A stretch of 63,090 nt of DNA, the filler included, from Eubacteriales bacterium (GTDB lineage: Bacteria > Bacillota > Clostridia > Oscillospirales > CAG-382), in the NCBI GenBank assembly GCA_045636665.1. It is 8 parts of 8 records of this genome, joined end to end, with 100 filler letters (N's around TTAATTAATTAA, not from the genome) between each part and the next. Parts side by side here need not be neighbours in the genome. Positions count along the whole stretch, not along the records: positions 8,849 to 18,023 come from JAZTXY010000010.1; positions 18,124 to 48,031 come from JAZTXY010000011.1; 6 more parts are not named here. One strand, given 5' to 3'. Every line of letters begins with the position of its first letter. The stretch's first letter is position 1. Below, one piece after another: positions 18,001 through 45,000 of the stretch. Position numbers: made by a program.

Positions 18001-21000
18001 GCTATGCTTGATGCAAACACCGCNNNNNNNNNNNNNNNNNNNNNNNNNNNNNNNNNNNNNNNNNNNNTTAATTAATTAANNNNNNNNNNNNNNNNNNNNN
18101 NNNNNNNNNNNNNNNNNNNNNNNCTTTTGGACTTCGATTTCGACATATTTTTCTCCGTTATCACCGACAGTTCCGTCTGCATCTGTCGTGCGCTGAGCAG
18201 AGCTGCGGTTGTTTGTTACTGCAAGAAAGCCGTCGGCTGTTGCAACAAGCTTGTAAACGATGACGCCGTCTTTTTCGGCGATATGCTTGTAATAATAACC
18301 CATTTCGTCATCTTCAAGAAGCGAAACCTTATATTCCTTTGCAATATCGGTTTCCACGGGGTTTGCATAAGTACCTACAGGATTTGCAAAGCAAAGCTCA
18401 TAGGTTTGCTTCGACGTCGAGGTGTTGGTAATTTCAAAAACAATCGCTTCGCTTGCCATCGCAGAAATAACTCTGAATGCAACAACGCCATCCTTTGGAG
18501 TATACTTTTTGCCATCGCACTTAATATAAAGGTCTTCGCTGTTAACAGTTACGTCTAATCCGCCGATACGGTAAATTCCATAGAATTGCGTTTCGTTTGC
18601 GCCGATTTCATAGGTGGTAAGCTTCATATCTTCATTGGGGAAAACCAAATAAGGATTTTCCTTTGTACCGTCGCCGATGATTTCGGGCTCGATGATCGGC
18701 TCGGAAGATTCTTCGTCGGGAGTGGAGGATTCGTCACCCTCGGACGATTCGTCGGAAGGAACCGAGGATTCGTCATTTTCGGTCGATTCGGAAGAAGCTT
18801 CTTGGGATTCGTCGCTTATTTCGTCGGAGGATTCAACATTAACGCTTTCGCTACTTTCGTTTGCGGCAGACGATTCATTTACAGCGCTCGAGCTTTCGGC
18901 GCTTGAGTTTTCGGTGTTCGAGCTTTGCGTTTCGGTTGCTTCTTCGCCGCCGCATCCAACCAAAGCGGTTAATGAAAATACAGATACAAGCGCCAAAGCC
19001 AAAACGGTTTTAAAAAGCTTTGAGGTTTTTTGTTTAATAATCATTTTTCGCTGCCTTCCGAAAGCACGATTTTGTATTCGGCAATACCGCTTTCAAGATA
19101 TATTTCGGATTCGCCCTCATAAGCATATCCTTCGGGGCAGGAGAGCACCGAAAGCTTATAGCCGTCGGTAATTTCCGCATTAAAGGTCGCAACGCCGTCT
19201 GTGCCGGTTTTTGCGGGGATGCAGGTGTCTTTGCAAAGCTGAACCATAACGTTAGCCACAGGGTTTTCTGATGCGTCAACGACGGTAACCTTGAAGGTTG
19301 CGGTTTGTTGCTCGGTGGAGGTTTCGCTTACGGAAGCGGATTCGTTTTCGGAAACCGCTTTGCTTTCTTCGGTAGATACTGCCGAAGAATCGGTGTTTTC
19401 TGCAGTTTCACTGCCGCAAGCGCAAAGGATCGAGGTAAAGCAAATCAAGAGAAGGATTGCAATTATTTTTTTCATTTTTTATATCCTTTCAATTAATGAA
19501 TGTCGCTTAAATTACGGTAGGTTTTTTGAGTATATCCGTCCGACACGAAATTCGTAAAGATTCGATTAAAGACTTCCTTGTCGGTGATCATCCCCGTATG
19601 CGAAAAAGCAACCATTCCGTACTTGTCTATAACTATCGTGGTGGGGAAAGCGGAGATTTTAAACATATTCGCCCATTCGCTTTCGCAAGAAAACATGGGG
19701 AATGAAAGTTTCATTTGCTCTGAATATTCCTTAACGGATTCGTTGTTGCCGTCATAAGGATTTATTGCAAGGATTTCAATGTCATCCTTATATTCATCGT
19801 ACGCTTGTTGCATATAAGGAAATTCCATTTTGCAGGGATCGCAGCCGATAAACCAGAAATTAAGAATTACCGCCTTTTTATTCTTTAAAAGCTCGGAAAT
19901 CTTAAATACGTTACCGTTTACGTCGGTTACCGAAAAATCCTTAACAATGTCACCGAGCTTGTAGGTATCGCTTTCGTAATTAGGTTCAAGGAATACCGTT
20001 TCAAGCTTGATTTCGGTGTTTTGCGATACGGGATATTGGCTTTCGGATTTATATCCGTCGGGAATACCCGAAACCGTTGCGATATAATTTTTGGCTGAGT
20101 CGGCTTTGAAGAACATATTGCCGTTATCGTCGGTCGTACCTGCCCAAATAAGGTCTTCCCTATTATCTTCGTCATAAATATAAACCGTGACATTTGCAAA
20201 GCTCATACCGCCGACAGATTTTACGGAAAGAGTATAATCAACAGCATTTTCGGGAACGTCAAAGCTGGATTCTGCACTATCCTTAACCGCAGCCAAGCGC
20301 GCGCTCAGAATAGAGCAGGAGCTTAAAGAAAGCAACGATATTACAGCCGCGAGGAATAAAACGGTAAGTCTTTTAAAAACGTTGCTTTTCATTATTTTCC
20401 ACCGTTTTCAATATAGCAGCACATAAGAAGCCATGCTATTTCGTTGTTAATATCGGTTAAGTTGTTACCGTCCATATCCTTGAAAAGATAGGTTGCGCTT
20501 TCGGAATCCCACCAGCCTGCATAATCACCGCGTTGCTGAATGATGTACTTAAGGTCTTCGGTGAGAGGATATACGCCTTCGTTTTCATCGACACATTCGA
20601 TGTATTCAAGCAAGCATTCGGAATAGTTTTCTCTTTTTACGAATTCGCCGTTTTCATCGTAGAAATATTTCGAAACACCCGAACGGTCAAGAATGGTTTG
20701 GAAGCACGCGATATATTCGCAATCCTCCGCAAGACGGACAAGAACAAGCGGGCCGTTTGCCGAGTCGAGATGATAAAAGCCGTCTTCCTCATTGAACACA
20801 AGATTATAGGTGTCGGTCGATGCGGTCAAATCGAATTCGCCGAGAGCTGCACCCTCGGGAAGGCTGTATGCATTAAGCTCTACGGTAGTTTTATAAATAG
20901 TCCAGGGCTCATCCTCAATCGTCTTTATCGGGTCGCCGACGCGCTTAATAGTTAAAACGCAGTCTTCCCCGCCGTTTTCAAGCAGATCGATACCAAGAAC

Positions 21001-42000: not shown

Positions 42001-45000
42001 CGTTGCACAAATTGCGATTTGTGCGTAAGACATTGCAAAATGGATATCAAACGCGTCGGCGACCGCGAATGTATCGCGTGCGGCGATTGTATCGACGTTT
42101 GTCCCGTTAATGCGATTGAATGGAAGGGCGCGAAGATTTTAAAGCCCTACGAGGATGCGGTTTCCAAGGCAAAGAATCCCAAAAAAGCCCGTACCGTCGT
42201 CAGAGCAACAGTGTGCGTTTTGATGATTGCGGCGCTTATCGGTGTCGGAGCCTATACTTGGTTTGACGAAAGCAACAATCTTCCAGATCAAGGCAACACC
42301 ATCGGTATGCTTTGCTACGGTGACGAGCTTAACGTAATTACGAAAGACGGAATCGGCGAGGATGTGATCAATCCTGCGGAAACGGGAAAGATTACGGTTA
42401 TTAACTTCTGGGGCACTTGGTGCACACCCTGCGTTAAGGAGCTGCCTTATTTTGATCAAATCGCAAGCGATTTTGCCGATGACGTGAACGTAATCGCAAT
42501 TCATACAAATATGATTTCCGAAACCGCGCCCGAATATATCGGCAAGTATTACCCCGAAAGCAGAATTGTTTTTGCGCAGGATACCGCCGATGAGGGTTAT
42601 TATGCCAAGCTTGGCGGCAGAGGTACATATCCCTATACCGTTATTCTTGATGAAAACGGAGTAATCGCCGAAATCTTCGTTTCGGCATTGGAATATGACG
42701 ACCTTAAAACCGCTATCGAAAAAATAAGATAACGATAAAGGGGCGCCAAATCGGCGCCCCAACGTATTTAGTTTACCAAATTTAAATTCAAAAGTCAATA
42801 GTTTTATGACACAAAATGGCATTCGTTACAATTTTCTCTTATATGAATAAATTTTTATAATGCATTTTGTACAATTCGTGTATTGAAAAATGATATTTTC
42901 TGTGCTAATATAAAGACACAGAAAGGGTGAGTCCAATGTACAGGTAAGCACAAGCAAAACGTTTTATAGCATTGACTGTTAAATCTCTTGACAAATAAAT
43001 TAATAATTAAAATATAATTCCTTTCAAAATAGTCGTATAAGAGATAACGTTTTAGCTTGAATTCGGTACGTAAGGTTCGGAATATTAACGAGCCGCCGAC
43101 ACACAACTTCGAATAATCTTTGGATCTGTTGCAAATGCCGTCCCGCATACGGGATAAAAGATTTGATTAACAGCAAGAGGGTGCAAGGCATTTCGAGGTA
43201 ATTTGATAGCCCGTAGAAAGAGAGGTTAAATTGATGCTGGATATCAAGAATTCAATATAGCCCTTGGTTGTAATTATAGATTATGCAACCAAGGGCTATT
43301 ATTTTGCGCCGAAAGGCGTTTTTTGTTTTTTCGGCATCTTTTAAACCTTGCCGAGAGCGGTTAAAAATTCGTCAACTTCCGCTTTCGTATTATACCTTGA
43401 AAGCGATATTCTCGCTCCGCCGATATCGTAGGTTCCAAGAGTATGATGCGCGTTCGGCGCGCAATGAAATCCGCCGCGCAATGCAAAGCCCAAATCGCAA
43501 AGTCGTTCGCAAACCGTTTCGCAGTCATATCCCTTTTTGTTAAAAAGCATAACGGGAACGTAATCCTTAAAGGTTTGTTCGGTCGGCTCGCCATAGGTTA
43601 TTATGTCAACCTTGTCTTTGATGTTATCAACAAGATGCTTAAACACCTCGCGTTCGGAAGAATAGGTTGAATATTCATCCAATGCTGCCGACCAACCGGC
43701 AATTCCGCAGATATTAAGCGTGCCCGATTCGAGCCGTTCGGGCAATAATTCGGGCATTTCAAGTGATTTTGAGTTTACTCCCGTTCCGCCCTCGATAAGC
43801 GGTTCGATTATAATATCGCTGTACGGATTGATTATCATTGCTCCCACGCCCATAGGTCCAAGCAGTCCCTTGTGAGCGGGTATGCAAATTATGTCAACCC
43901 CAAGGTCGACGATATCGATTCCGATATGACCTGCGGTTTGCGACGCATCGAGGATAAAAACAGCATCCTCGGGCGCAAGCCTTTTTAGTGTTTTTATCGG
44001 CAGAATTCTTCCGCAAACATTCGATGCGTGAGTTAAAACGACGTTTGTTGCCGCACGGCAAACCGAAGAAAAATTATCGCAGGTAACGATATCGTTTCGA
44101 ATATCGACAAGGAATTGACGCATTACGGTTTCGCCGTTTTTCCTTAATTTATTAATCGGTCGCATAACGGCGTTATGCTCTAACGACGAAACTACCGTCA
44201 CCCCTTGTAAGCGATTTGTTCCTTTAATTGCGATATTAAGCGCTTCGGTTGCCGATGCTGTAAAAACGACACATTCTTCACGCGTGTTAAATATTTTCGC
44301 AAGCTTTTTTCGACAGTTAAATACCGTTTCTGCGGCTTTTTGAGCAAAACGGTGTCCGCTTCTGCCTGCGTTTCCGCATTCGGAAAGCGCCGTGCACATT
44401 GCCGCTTTTACACTGTCGGGCTTCGGCATCGAGGTTGCGGCATTATCAAAATAGATCATTTTTCGTCAATACTCCCTATAATCGGTATGCCGCTTTGCTC
44501 AAGCAATTGCATTGCCTTTTCATATAAGGTTTTATCAAAGCTTATTCCGTAACCGCATCCGCGCACACTTTTTACCGCTTTTGAGCGCGATATATTTGAA
44601 TATATGCCGTTTGTTTTTAACAATTCCTGTGCCTTTAACGCATAGGTTACAGACGTTAGCACAATGGTTTTTTTCATAATTTCACTCCCTGCTACAGAAT
44701 ATGAAATAAAGCCTTAACTGTTGAATGGGATTGAAATCTATATAATTAATTTGTATAATATTTGCAACCTTTTCGAATTTTTTCCGACATAATTAATGTA
44801 CGGGTGCCCGAACACTAACGAAAGGAGGCGTTTTTGATGGATGACCGCGCGATAATCGATGCTTTTTTCAAAAGAAACGAGGAAGCAATCACATACACGC
44901 AAAGAAAATACGGTAAAATGCTTTTTTCGGTTGCTTACAACCTTTTAAAAAGCAAAGAGGATGCAAATGAGTGCGTAAACGACGCTTTGCTCTCGGCTTG

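Follow-up and report, generated by a model that had tools for sequence, protein, structure and literature searches.

A two-gene iron-sulfur machine in a gut Clostridium probably passes electrons to surface disulfide-reducing proteins without the usual DsbD/CcdA carrier

How are electrons passed to thioredoxin-like lipoproteins on the surface of a bacterium in whose genome, 80.5% complete, no match to DsbD_TM (PF02683) is found? This question is raised by a locus of Eubacteriales bacterium (GCA_045636665.1; CAG-382), contained in a window of 63,090 nucleotides, i.e., the whole stretch of DNA analyzed, along which all positions are counted. An earlier note proposed that a protein combining a membrane polyferredoxin with a thioredoxin replaces DsbD/CcdA here and serves protein and peptide foraging. 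We propose that this fusion, g00109, and its upstream neighbor, g00108, form a two-subunit iron-sulfur transmembrane thiol-disulfide reductase that moves electrons from the cytoplasm to Ig-Trx lipoproteins at the surface, a reading to which we assign a probability of roughly 0.6.

The fusion is real. g00109 is a Fer4_5 membrane polyferredoxin followed by one more membrane helix and a ResA/TlpA-like thioredoxin. Pfam finds Fer4_5 in three stretches (69.1 bits; cut-off 22), Fer4 in two, and Redoxin, AhpC-TSA and Thioredoxin matches that span residues 347-452 of a 464-aa reading starting at 41338. The true start, however, most likely lies at 41284 (41284..42732, plus strand; 482 aa), because P13 and K15, upstream of the previous start, are invariant among the aligned fusion homologues and because the ATG at 41284, separated from the g00108 stop by an intergenic gap of 5 nt, is preceded by the Shine-Dalgarno-like stretch GGGGTGA; cysteines are numbered here in the 482-aa reading. 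The NapH-type label first given to the protein does not hold, its score of 67.5 bits being far under the cut-off of 213. A profile search of the PDB matched the ferredoxin part alone (polyferredoxins, HdrA, hydrogenases). Just 3' of the fusion stop is a GC-rich, terminator-like hairpin (42740..42760, no strand assigned; consensus scan, T-tail scored on the minus strand).

All 18 aligned fusion homologues share every cysteine motif of the fusion without change, i.e., C48/C54/C57/C64, C99X3C103P, C159X3C163P, C213X3C217P, two CX2CX2CX3C motifs (C241-C251 and C263-C273) and C380-x-P382-C383; W379, which had been called invariant as well, is nearly so (≥90% of the aligned homologues). The N-terminal motif C48-X5-C54-X2-C57-P-X5-C64-P (41425..41475; this and the following features on the plus strand) is predicted to lie on the outer face and is conserved among homologues both fused (37-38/38) and unfused (34-35/35); the cysteines of all three CX3CP motifs are kept in 39/39 and 35/35, respectively. 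The first CX3CP motif (41578..41595), after helix 80-98 and followed by a K-rich loop, is predicted to face inward, the second (41758..41775) outward, and the third (41920..41937) inward, where it runs into a 2x[4Fe-4S] ferredoxin domain (C241/244/247/251 and C263/266/269/273; Pfam Fer4; 41980..42126) that is predicted to be cytoplasmic. A last helix (residues 299-327 by hydropathy and in the AF2 model; 42178..42264) would return the chain to the outside, placing there the thioredoxin domain (42292..42729), with its active site W379-C380-T-P382-C383 at 42418-42432.

Several observations support this topology. First, hydropathy detects four strong helices (80-98, 128-146, 195-213 and 305-323), and a weaker, kinked N-terminal helix at ∼15-36 is counted because the positive-inside rule requires it, in line with the five helices claimed originally. 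Second, whereas an AF2 model of the membrane part had been reported as poor (pLDDT <50), a 92-sequence alignment gave a mean pLDDT of 94.7 and a pTM of 0.85. Third, in the relative P0243 the ferredoxin domain is followed at once by an Rrf2 DNA-binding domain, which argues that the former is cytoplasmic, and in unfused modules the separate thioredoxin is a lipoprotein, which argues that the thioredoxin domain is outside. Fourth, the thioredoxin region of g00109 is acidic (27 D+E versus 10 K+R).

In structure, the thioredoxin domain is nearest to ResA, CcmG, TlpA and Etrx (Z 20.0 to 3gl3 and 19.6 to ResA 2f9s, rmsd 1.8 over 134-136 residues; Foldseek E 6e-8). This fold would suit either direction of electron flow, the counter-case being the ResA-like SdbA of Streptococcus gordonii (Z 18.4), which is described as a disulfide-forming enzyme. 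The machine might be the counterpart, in an anaerobe, of DsbB or VKOR-Trx: electrons from surface thioredoxin-like oxidases would run along the iron-sulfur chain to an acceptor in the cytoplasm, and disulfides would thereby form in secreted Cys-rich proteins, which the locus does encode. In the oxidizing VKOR family, thioredoxin domains are found joined to membrane redox proteins, a ResA-like fold is compatible with oxidase activity, and no other disulfide-forming machinery, including DsbB and VKOR, was found in the 80.5% complete genome. Nevertheless, we consider this unlikely: the active site W-C-x-P-C is the form of ResA and TlpA, and sister genomes place the corresponding thioredoxins beside CcdA-type DsbD_TM genes. 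Moreover, ferredoxin-type [4Fe-4S] potentials are normally well below those of thiol/disulfide couples, making such clusters thermodynamically donors to disulfides and not acceptors from thiols. Together with the ResA/CcmG/TlpA/Etrx-like fold, the presence of PFOR and RnfD, and the lack of detectable DsbB, VKOR and UbiA-type quinone prenyltransferase genes, these potentials favor the reducing direction. It is highly improbable that the thioredoxin-fold domains are instead surface peroxidases, or supply a methionine sulfoxide reductase, in oxidative-stress defense. Pfam AhpC-TSA matches all three such domains of the locus (in g00097, g00099 and g00109), and the structural matches include Etrx1 and Etrx2; however, the active sites are thioredoxin-type CXXC dithiols, which differ from the peroxiredoxin motif, and MsrA was found neither in the genome (80.5% complete) nor among the conserved neighbors. 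The system to compare would be the pneumococcal CcdA-Etrx-MsrAB2 (PMC3914529).

The idea of a DsbD-independent membrane conduit is supported, but we include g00108 in the functional unit because of its CXXC tail beside the fusion and its modelled contact with it. g00108 (40448..41278, plus strand) encodes a 276-aa membrane protein with five helices predicted by hydropathy, named only "hypothetical protein" in the sources, and would be the second conduit subunit. Its C-terminal tail ICTECIGLG (C269, C272; 41249..41275, plus strand) has the CXXC motif of the CD1871A family (NF040920, 30 bits by hmmscan, 34.4 bits when the genome was searched; cut-off 32), and K264, A265, C269, E271, C272, G274 and G276 do not vary across 50 sequences. 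The tail is predicted to be extracellular, in line with small CD1871A proteins, which run from a K-rich N-terminus through one helix to the CXXC tail. An ORF ending in this motif abuts the fusion in 80/80 related loci, with the motif occurring 0 times elsewhere in 1.34 Mb, and in 61/80 tblastn places a g00108 homologue immediately 5' of the fusion, in the same orientation. A complex model of g00108 and g00109 reached an ipSAE of 0.66 (runs 0.62-0.67) versus 0.00 for the best control, a mark that 116 of the 157 solved complexes attained but just 2 of the 215 mismatched pairs. Contacts agreed by ≥93%, and partner pLDDT was ≥71. The model supports binding of g00108 to the fusion through an interface that includes the g00108 C-terminal tail and fusion residues 41-48, 54-56, 62-64 and 155-163, with the tail modelled on the outward cysteine motifs. 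We propose that the two genes form a bicistronic operon. A promoter-like site, TTTACT-17-TATAAT with TG (40377..40405, plus strand; consensus scan only), is located upstream of g00108 in the divergent intergenic region between this gene and the subtilase gene g00107.

We infer the following route, including the donor, the direction of flow, the CX3CP cofactors and the final substrates or physiological target. Electrons from the cytoplasm would enter the 2x[4Fe-4S] domain of g00109, most likely from reduced ferredoxin, because PFOR and Rnf are present and the lack of a detectable UbiA-type prenyltransferase makes a quinol donor unlikely. From there they would reach C99, C103, C213 and C217, all four on the inner face, and then cross the membrane to the outer-face C48, C54, C57, C64, C159 and C163 and the g00108 CXXC tail, where one-electron iron-sulfur chemistry would be converted to a dithiol. 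The tethered thioredoxin domain (C380, C383) would take up the reducing equivalents and hand them to g00097 and g00099, which would reduce disulfides of surface or external proteins. Because we know of no obvious route for iron-sulfur assembly on the outward face of a Sec-inserted protein, the outer cysteines may be a disulfide relay instead of cluster ligands.

The two lipoprotein thioredoxins, their related lipoprotein and the subtilase are as claimed previously; these and the other neighboring genes below are all on the minus strand. g00097 (19493..20392) encodes a 299-aa lipoprotein with an Ig-like stalk and a thioredoxin domain (C-D-P-C; Pfam, and ResA-like by NCBIfam), and g00099 (21693..24515) a 940-aa lipoprotein with 19 Cys, in which Pfam and an AF2 model (pLDDT 85.8) point to an Ig-like stalk, a thioredoxin domain (C194-S-W-C197) and two beta-sandwich plus helical modules. 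Between them, g00098 (20392..21672; 426 aa, 10 Cys) encodes a lipoprotein akin to the C-terminal part of g00099 (BLASTP E 2e-9), with no thioredoxin domain and no Pfam match. g00096 (19041..19475) encodes a 144-aa lipoprotein with an Ig-like domain and 6 Cys; g00106 (31752..33074), beside the subtilase gene, a 440-aa lipoprotein with no Pfam match; and g00107 (33095..40249) the 2384-aa surface subtilase (S8, PA, fn3_5 and BspA-type LRR_5 by Pfam, and a C-terminal anchor), with 27 Cys, 17 of them within the LRR_5 region. The genes at 24831..31718 we take, from sequence features of their translations, to encode an oppFDCBA-type oligopeptide ABC transporter. Near the fusion, a g00099-like gene is present in 28/80 loci, g00106 in 19/80, g00098 in 15/80, g00096 in 9/80, and oppA in only 8/80.

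What would this machine serve? The subtilase linkage is strict inside the family, where an orthologue (≥61% identity) is present in 34/34 fusion genomes and 1/117 others, but weak in distant relatives (near the fusion in 4/38 loci), and the foraging purpose is not established. Because the neighboring surface proteins are themselves Cys-rich, keeping them reduced or correctly paired, e.g., after oxygen exposure, is an equally good target. We hold it possible, though not the favored account, that the same machine serves this purpose and not foraging; DsbD/CcdA-fed thioredoxins, too, typically have the cell's own envelope proteins as clients. Less easily accommodated are distant relatives in which the fusion and g00099-like proteins remain together in the absence of the subtilase (g00099-like in 9/38 distant loci, subtilase in 4/38), and g00099 itself: Foldseek matches it to ResA-like chains and to the C-terminal region of DipZ, a Trx plus carbohydrate-binding (CBM)-like domain, and, with its two beta-sandwich modules, it would suit binding of an external substrate.

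The fusion is the fused form of a broader unnamed module of a lipoprotein thioredoxin, a CD1871A CXXC protein and a polyferredoxin. CD1871A is present in 56/300 sampled Clostridia genomes, and a polyferredoxin is immediately beside it in 30/30 class-level loci. A separate Trx-like gene is ≤1.5 kb away in 20 of these loci and in none of the other 10, as might be expected if the polyferredoxin and its CXXC partner reduced some other extracellular acceptor, e.g., a metal ion, a small disulfide or polysulfide as electron sink, with the thioredoxins as accessories or small-molecule catalytic heads. CcoG, a weak match, is described as a cupric reductase, and no conserved cytoplasmic partner pointing to protein repair was found. 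The Fer4_5 relatives NapH, NosR and PceC serve varied extracytosolic acceptors (PMC8238504). We nonetheless regard such a role as quite doubtful: most cases show a thioredoxin domain either fused or next door (all of the 120 best matches, and 20 of the 30 class-level loci), in some forms two or even three thioredoxin domains follow in tandem, and the conserved partners are large multidomain surface proteins, not transporters or metal-binding proteins.

Does the fusion system, then, replace DsbD/CcdA? Inside the family, the claim holds, and the counts agree with the earlier ones. Among 151 genomes (81 of high quality), the fusion is present in 34 (16 of the high-quality ones), DsbD_TM over its cut-off in 31 (20 of the high-quality ones at E ≤ 0.001), and both in 0. 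Long matches to the g00099-type Ig+Trx lipoprotein occur in exactly the 34 fusion genomes, and the Ig-Trx lipoproteins cluster with the fusion. Of 65 family genomes with a g00097-like (ResA-like) thioredoxin, 61 have the fusion or DsbD_TM, and a short Trx-only match is found in 27/31 DsbD_TM genomes, within ∼1 kb of the DsbD_TM gene where listed coordinates were compared. However, the fusion is confined to 3 of 15 genera, so that this complementarity reflects few evolutionary events, and the absences in the window's own genome are weak evidence given its completeness of 80.5%. Moreover, 86/151 family genomes have neither system, among them many congeneric ones that are 95-99% complete, and only 4 of these 86 have a g00097-like thioredoxin; at class level, 15/56 module genomes also have DsbD_TM. 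Because of this coexistence and of the genomes with neither, the fusion system is an alternative or parallel route and no strict replacement for DsbD/CcdA.

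We put at roughly 40% the probability that g00108, a membrane protein ending in a CXXC tail, and the Fer4_5 polyferredoxin of the adjacent fusion protein g00109 represent an unrecognised class of transmembrane disulfide reductase. Such a system would take electrons from low-potential cytoplasmic ferredoxin and pass them through iron-sulfur centres and a Cys relay to surface thioredoxins, so that it would in effect be a ferredoxin:thioredoxin reductase spanning the membrane. Gut Clostridia would commonly carry it (about one fifth of the sampled genomes), and in the present lineage it would drive large disulfide reductases at the cell surface, which would target external proteins or exploit external disulfides as an electron sink. 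The mechanism itself, in which ferredoxin drives an iron-sulfur-to-dithiol relay across the membrane, has a substantial chance of being new.

The locus lies on a single contig (18124-48031) of a 1.8-Mb assembly that comprises 139 contigs and is 80.5% complete. An N run at 18076-18123 joins this contig to another one, to which the initial 18 kb of the window belong, and the gene for an acidic Ser/Glu-rich lipoprotein (18124-19044, -) is truncated at the contig end. The fusion gene has an uninterrupted reading frame. The earlier note had chosen a later start codon; however, residues ahead of that codon are conserved in the 18 aligned fusion homologues, and an ATG at 41284, preceded by a GGGGTGA stretch, lies 5 nt past the stop codon of g00108. 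We therefore favor this ATG, and the fusion protein is most likely 482 aa long (41284-42732, +). According to Pfam, it contains Fer4_5 in three stretches, a pair of Fer4 motifs and one Redoxin/AhpC-TSA/Thioredoxin domain. The Fer4_5 family (PF12801) is matched with 69.1 bits (cut-off 22), and the same three stretches were recovered in the genome search. By contrast, the NapH/MauN model (TIGR02163; 67.5 bits, cut-off 213.05) and the NapH equivalog (NF007013; 50.8 bits, cut-off 234) were matched over their C-terminal third alone and far below cut-off. The protein, previously labelled "NapH-type", is thus not a member of the NapH families proper. The thioredoxin domain reaches 41.9 bits with Redoxin (cut-off 26.6), superimposes on ResA with a Z of 19.6 and an rmsd of 1.8 over 134 residues, and has the CXXC motif of a ResA/TlpA/CcmG-like fold. 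It remains below the cut-offs of the NCBIfam models for the ResA subfamily (58.1 against 170), StoA (48.8 against 210), TlpA (40.4 against 230) and DsbE (35.8 against 123), and is classed by these scores as a member of the ResA/TlpA superfamily outside every named family tested. DsbD_TM (PF02683) had no Pfam match in the fusion or g00108 and none in the source genome at E <= 1.

In all 18 homologues, the invariant residues comprise an N-terminal motif of C48, C54, C57 and C64, the CX3CP pairs C99/C103, C159/C163 and C213/C217, two ferredoxin-type clusters (C241-C251 and C263-C273) and the thioredoxin active site C380-x-P382-C383. The ten membrane-proximal and eight ferredoxin Cys residues are kept in 37-39/38-39 fused and 31-35/33-35 unfused sequences. 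We rejected chance or a gene-calling artefact as an explanation, since frame, motifs and gene pairing are all kept across 80 loci from species-level genomes with a fusion relative. An exhaustive search for relatives at E <= 1e-30 returned 425 clusters at 50% identity. Many relatives, including P0005, P0010, P0016, P0124, P0131 and P0132, carry two or three near-identical thioredoxin domains in tandem behind the membrane helix and are ∼640-730 aa long.

An AlphaFold2 model of the fusion, built on an alignment of 92 sequences with unfused relatives among them, has a mean pLDDT of 94.7 and a pTM of 0.85 and supersedes the low-confidence membrane model reported before. Hydropathy gives four strong helices, and a kinked helix at ∼15-36 (AF2 helices 15-27 and 31-36) is needed for a sensible charge distribution. 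Seven K/R residues lie within residues 1-18, basic loops follow helices 80-98 and 195-213, and the C-terminal domain is acidic (27 D+E versus 10 K+R). Because of this helix count and charge distribution, the ferredoxin domain is predicted to be inside and the thioredoxin domain outside. It follows from the same topology that C99/C103 and C213/C217 are predicted to face the cytoplasm, and the four-Cys N-terminal motif and C159/C163 to face outward. The predicted extracytoplasmic placement of the thioredoxin domain is based on the preceding helix (299-327), the charge bias, the unfused systems, in which the thioredoxin is a lipoprotein, and the relative P0243, in which a DNA-binding Rrf2 domain directly behind the ferredoxin domain supports a cytoplasmic position of the latter. 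The structural matches of the thioredoxin domain to ResA, CcmG, TlpA and Etrx, with Z up to 20, also support placement outside. The Rrf2-type fusion points to a possible role of some members in relaying redox state to gene expression; alternatively, it is a gene-calling fusion. For the membrane part, Foldseek against the PDB and the VIA-align wide search gave thioredoxin-domain matches only, and a PDB sequence-profile search with the fusion matched the 2x[4Fe-4S] domain and nothing else. The lack of a solved relative is not evidence of a new fold, the Fer4_5 membrane domain never having been queried alone.

g00108 (40448-41278, +) is a five-helix membrane protein. Its C-terminal nonapeptide, ICTECIGLG, fits the CD1871A CXXC family of NCBIfam (NF040920), although borderline, with 34.4 bits in the genome search versus 30.0 by hmmscan of the whole protein (cut-off 32). 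The tail K-A-x-x-I-C-x-E-C-I-G-L-G is common to g00108 and the small CD1871A members, compared to which g00108 has four additional helices. Across 50 g00108 homologues with overall identities of just 18-43%, K264, A265, C269, E271, C272, G274 and G276 are invariant. By tblastn, a g00108 homologue lies immediately upstream of the fusion in 61 of the 80 loci. By motif scan, an ORF ending in C-x-x-C-x-G-x-[G/F]-stop lies within -394 to +14 nt of the fusion start in all 80, and this motif occurred zero times elsewhere in 1.34 Mb read in six frames. Complex prediction with both alignments scored the pair at 0.66 (runs 0.62-0.67) and the best control at 0.00; the mark for this score is attained by 116/157 solved complexes and 2/215 mismatched pairs. 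In the model (contact agreement at least 93%, partner pLDDT at least 71), the last helix of g00108 packs antiparallel against fusion helix 81-93, and the interface includes the g00108 tail (255-276) as well as fusion residues 41-64 and 155-163, i.e., the two motifs predicted to face outward. Independently of the complex model, charge-based topology places the tail of g00108 outside. The model thus supports, but does not prove, binding of g00108 to the fusion. N-terminally extended relatives (P0147, P0123 and P0150) were considered as natural fusions of the pair and rejected, as neither inspection of the sequences nor hhalign (probability 0.6%) revealed a g00108-like CXXC tail.

Beyond the fusion, the CD1871A family exceeds its cut-off in 56 of 300 sampled Clostridia genomes. 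These proteins are mostly 42-90 aa long, with a basic N-terminus, a single helix and the tail K-A-I-x-[IL]-C-[LM]-E-C-[IV]-G-I-G. All 30 CD1871A loci examined have a polyferredoxin directly beside the CD1871A gene, with 37-50% identity to fusion residues ∼15-280, and 20 have a separate thioredoxin-like gene in the 1.5-kb flanks, coding for a lipoprotein in at least some cases. From these loci and the Cys conservation common to both forms, we conclude at the level of sequence that the window holds a widespread system of three parts in a fused form. Relatives of the fusion are encoded in at least 568 species-level genomes, and the names given to the system's proteins in the sources are "4Fe-4S binding protein" and "hypothetical protein" only. 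Searches of the literature outside subscription journals (NapH-like/thioredoxin, polyferredoxin/DsbD, CD1871A and PF12801) returned no description of the fusion or the module; in the C. difficile literature found, CD1871/CD1871A appears as a bare locus tag in a list.

The earlier note had proposed that the fusion replaces DsbD/CcdA. Among 151 genomes of the family, the fusion is present in 34 (3 of 15 genera), DsbD_TM exceeds its cut-off in 31, none has both, and 86 have neither. A query with the lipoprotein thioredoxin g00097 matched 65 of these genomes: the long matches, consisting of stalk and thioredoxin, coincide with the set of 34 fusion genomes, short matches to the thioredoxin alone occur in 27 of the 31 DsbD_TM genomes, and only four genomes with neither conduit have a match. 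Where listed coordinates were compared, the short matches lie ∼1 kb or less from the DsbD_TM gene. Because ResA-like thioredoxins accompany one conduit or the other in 61 of the 65 genomes, this distribution is, of the comparative evidence, what speaks most strongly for the fusion performing the function of CcdA in the family. Such a replacement would nevertheless be confined to the family, since 15 of the 56 module genomes in the class sample also have DsbD_TM (odds ratio 0.37, Fisher p 0.003, not phylogeny-corrected). The complementary pattern stems from few evolutionary events, and neither conduit occurs in about half of the genomes in the genus of the window, many of these genomes being 95-99% complete. 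An extra small ResA-like thioredoxin (∼130-225 aa frame) is encoded elsewhere in DsbD_TM-free fusion genomes (genome:contig G030:C37, G031:C28, G002:C61, G053:C8, G064:C61, G107:C58, G088:C148, G054:C17, G111:C3, G143:C91 and G131:C19), and may be supplied by the conduit as well.

The genes around the fusion are those described before: two Ig-like plus thioredoxin lipoproteins, a Cys-rich lipoprotein related to them, an opp-type transporter, a 440-aa lipoprotein and the subtilase g00107 (33095-40249, -; 2384 aa, S8/PA/fn3/LRR_5). A subtilase orthologue (identity at least 61%) occurs in 34/34 fusion genomes versus 1/117 other family genomes, and family genomes elsewhere have paralogues of 32-40% identity only. 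The exception, G063 (93% complete), has a partial orthologue (69% identity) and a small thioredoxin but neither the fusion nor DsbD_TM, and is either an assembly gap or a genuine exception. Over the 80 loci, the subtilase lies near the fusion in 27, i.e., in 23/42 with a fusion identity of at least 50% but 4/38 below 50%. A protein similar to the lipoprotein thioredoxin g00099 lies near it in 28 (19/42 and 9/38, respectively), including distant loci labelled Christensenellaceae and, at fusion identities above 50%, loci labelled Borkfalkiaceae. These counts are lower bounds because of contig ends. Based on them, g00108 and the fusion appear as the core of the system, followed by the Ig-thioredoxin proteins, and the subtilase as a lineage-specific companion; the link to proteolysis proposed before is strict within the family but weak at distant loci.

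In the predicted fold of g00099 (21693-24515, -; pLDDT 85.8), a stalk is followed by a thioredoxin domain and two beta-sandwich plus helical modules, and a Foldseek match to the C-terminal region of DipZ is the sole lead beyond the thioredoxin domain. For the C-terminal modules of g00099 and the Cys-rich g00098, Pfam had no match, and an Atlas search gave unnamed clusters and a CarboxypepD_reg-like match. The g00099 active site, C-S-W-C (residues 194-197), has an unusual dipeptide, and neither of its Cys varies among 27 sequences. Another invariant Cys, C602, lies in the first C-terminal module within a W-L-x-x-C strand, and the second module ends with a similar W-L-K-V-C. In the subtilase, 17 of the 27 Cys lie in the BspA-type LRR_5 region, about one per repeat. 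Because the neighbouring surface proteins are Cys-rich, maintenance of the cell's own surface proteins is as plausible as foraging. Downstream, 44834-47925 (+) encodes an ECF-type sigma factor and, with overlapping stop and start, an 845-aa protein with one membrane segment and no Pfam match, which may be an anti-sigma-like partner; neither was found in the 80 related loci.

As for the source of electrons, the source genome encodes pyruvate:ferredoxin oxidoreductase and RnfD. No UbiA-type prenyltransferase was found in this 80.5% complete genome (the control was positive in 14/14 genomes), nor were DsbB, VKOR or MsrA, and the 989 clustered ORFs from the 80 loci include no conserved cytoplasmic oxidoreductase or donor gene; their middle-ranking clusters belong to unrelated or unknown Pfam families. 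From this combination we infer that the donor is ferredoxin and the direction is reduction; a quinol donor appears unlikely. A class-V aminotransferase gene (NifS/cysteine desulfurase-like; 43341-44459, -), convergent to the fusion, makes a link to iron-sulfur assembly tempting; however, it is present in only 2/80 related loci, and we rejected this link. No RNA run is listed as containing the sequence, and just two DNA runs are, with 6-8% of words.

Several known systems resemble parts of this arrangement. Like DsbD/CcdA/ScsB, the fusion system would supply extracytoplasmic thioredoxins of the ResA/TlpA/CcmG type with reducing equivalents from the other side of the membrane, and in the family the two occupy complementary genome sets with ResA-like thioredoxins accompanying both. 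DipZ, which consists of a CcdA-type membrane domain followed by Trx and CBM-like domains, likewise joins a membrane part to a thioredoxin, and g00099 resembles its C-terminal region. However, DsbD/CcdA uses one transmembrane Cys pair and takes electrons from cytoplasmic thioredoxin, whereas the fusion lacks DsbD_TM, has 18 conserved Cys in iron-sulfur-type motifs, is likely supplied by ferredoxin and would need a separate CXXC-tail subunit.

NapH-like systems have a cytoplasmic 2x[4Fe-4S] domain. In the part of Meheust et al. 2021 (PMC8238504) devoted to them, such conduits with Fer4_5 (NapH, NosR and PceC) are proposed to serve flavinylated extracytosolic proteins. As outlined in that part, they share with the fusion helices followed by CX3CP motifs, a 2x[4Fe-4S] domain and a modular design in which the extracytosolic redox domain is often on the same chain; the outside module there is an ApbE-flavinylated FMN-binding domain rather than a thioredoxin (PMC8238504). 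The fusion goes beyond them in its extra four-Cys N-terminal motif and third CX3CP, both predicted to face outward, and differs in that the CXXC-tail partner would be obligatory and a quinol donor appears unlikely. Ferredoxin:thioredoxin reductase and HdrB/HdrD use a [4Fe-4S] cluster by a Cys pair to turn one-electron donors into a dithiol that reduces thioredoxin or a disulfide. To these enzymes we suggest a likeness in working only and claim no kinship in sequence or fold; ferredoxin:thioredoxin reductase and heterodisulfide reductase operate in the cytoplasm or stroma, whereas the fusion would operate across the membrane. In VKOR-thioredoxin fusions and DsbB, a membrane redox protein is coupled, and sometimes fused, to an extracytoplasmic thioredoxin-fold protein, but these systems are quinone-dependent and oxidising, and neither family was found in the source genome, nor was a UbiA-type prenyltransferase. 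CcdA feeds the Etrx lipoproteins of pneumococci. Etrx1 and Etrx2, described within PMC3914529 as surface-exposed thioredoxin-family lipoproteins of the Etrx1/2-MsrAB2 system, are structural matches of the thioredoxin domains here; by contrast with the CcdA-Etrx-MsrAB2 pathway, the conduit is another one, MsrA was not found, and the lipoproteins have Ig-like stalks and large C-terminal modules. As judged from its domains, the fusion system thus joins a NapH-like membrane module to a DsbD/CcdA-style thioredoxin output and adds a CXXC-tail subunit.

To our knowledge, the characterised routes that reduce extracytoplasmic thioredoxins are all DsbD/CcdA/ScsB Cys-pair transporters driven by cytoplasmic thioredoxin. 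A ferredoxin-driven iron-sulfur conduit would, if true, be a second and mechanistically distinct solution, for which g00108 and g00109 provide a concrete and testable gene pair. The idea of a modular "NapH-like" conduit would then widen from flavinylated proteins to thiol-disulfide chemistry. It would also explain how surface thioredoxins can be kept running in many strictly anaerobic gut Firmicutes that are free of CcdA, and, if the surface Ig-thioredoxin proteins act on host or dietary proteins, would bear on the breakdown of disulfide-rich proteins by gut bacteria.
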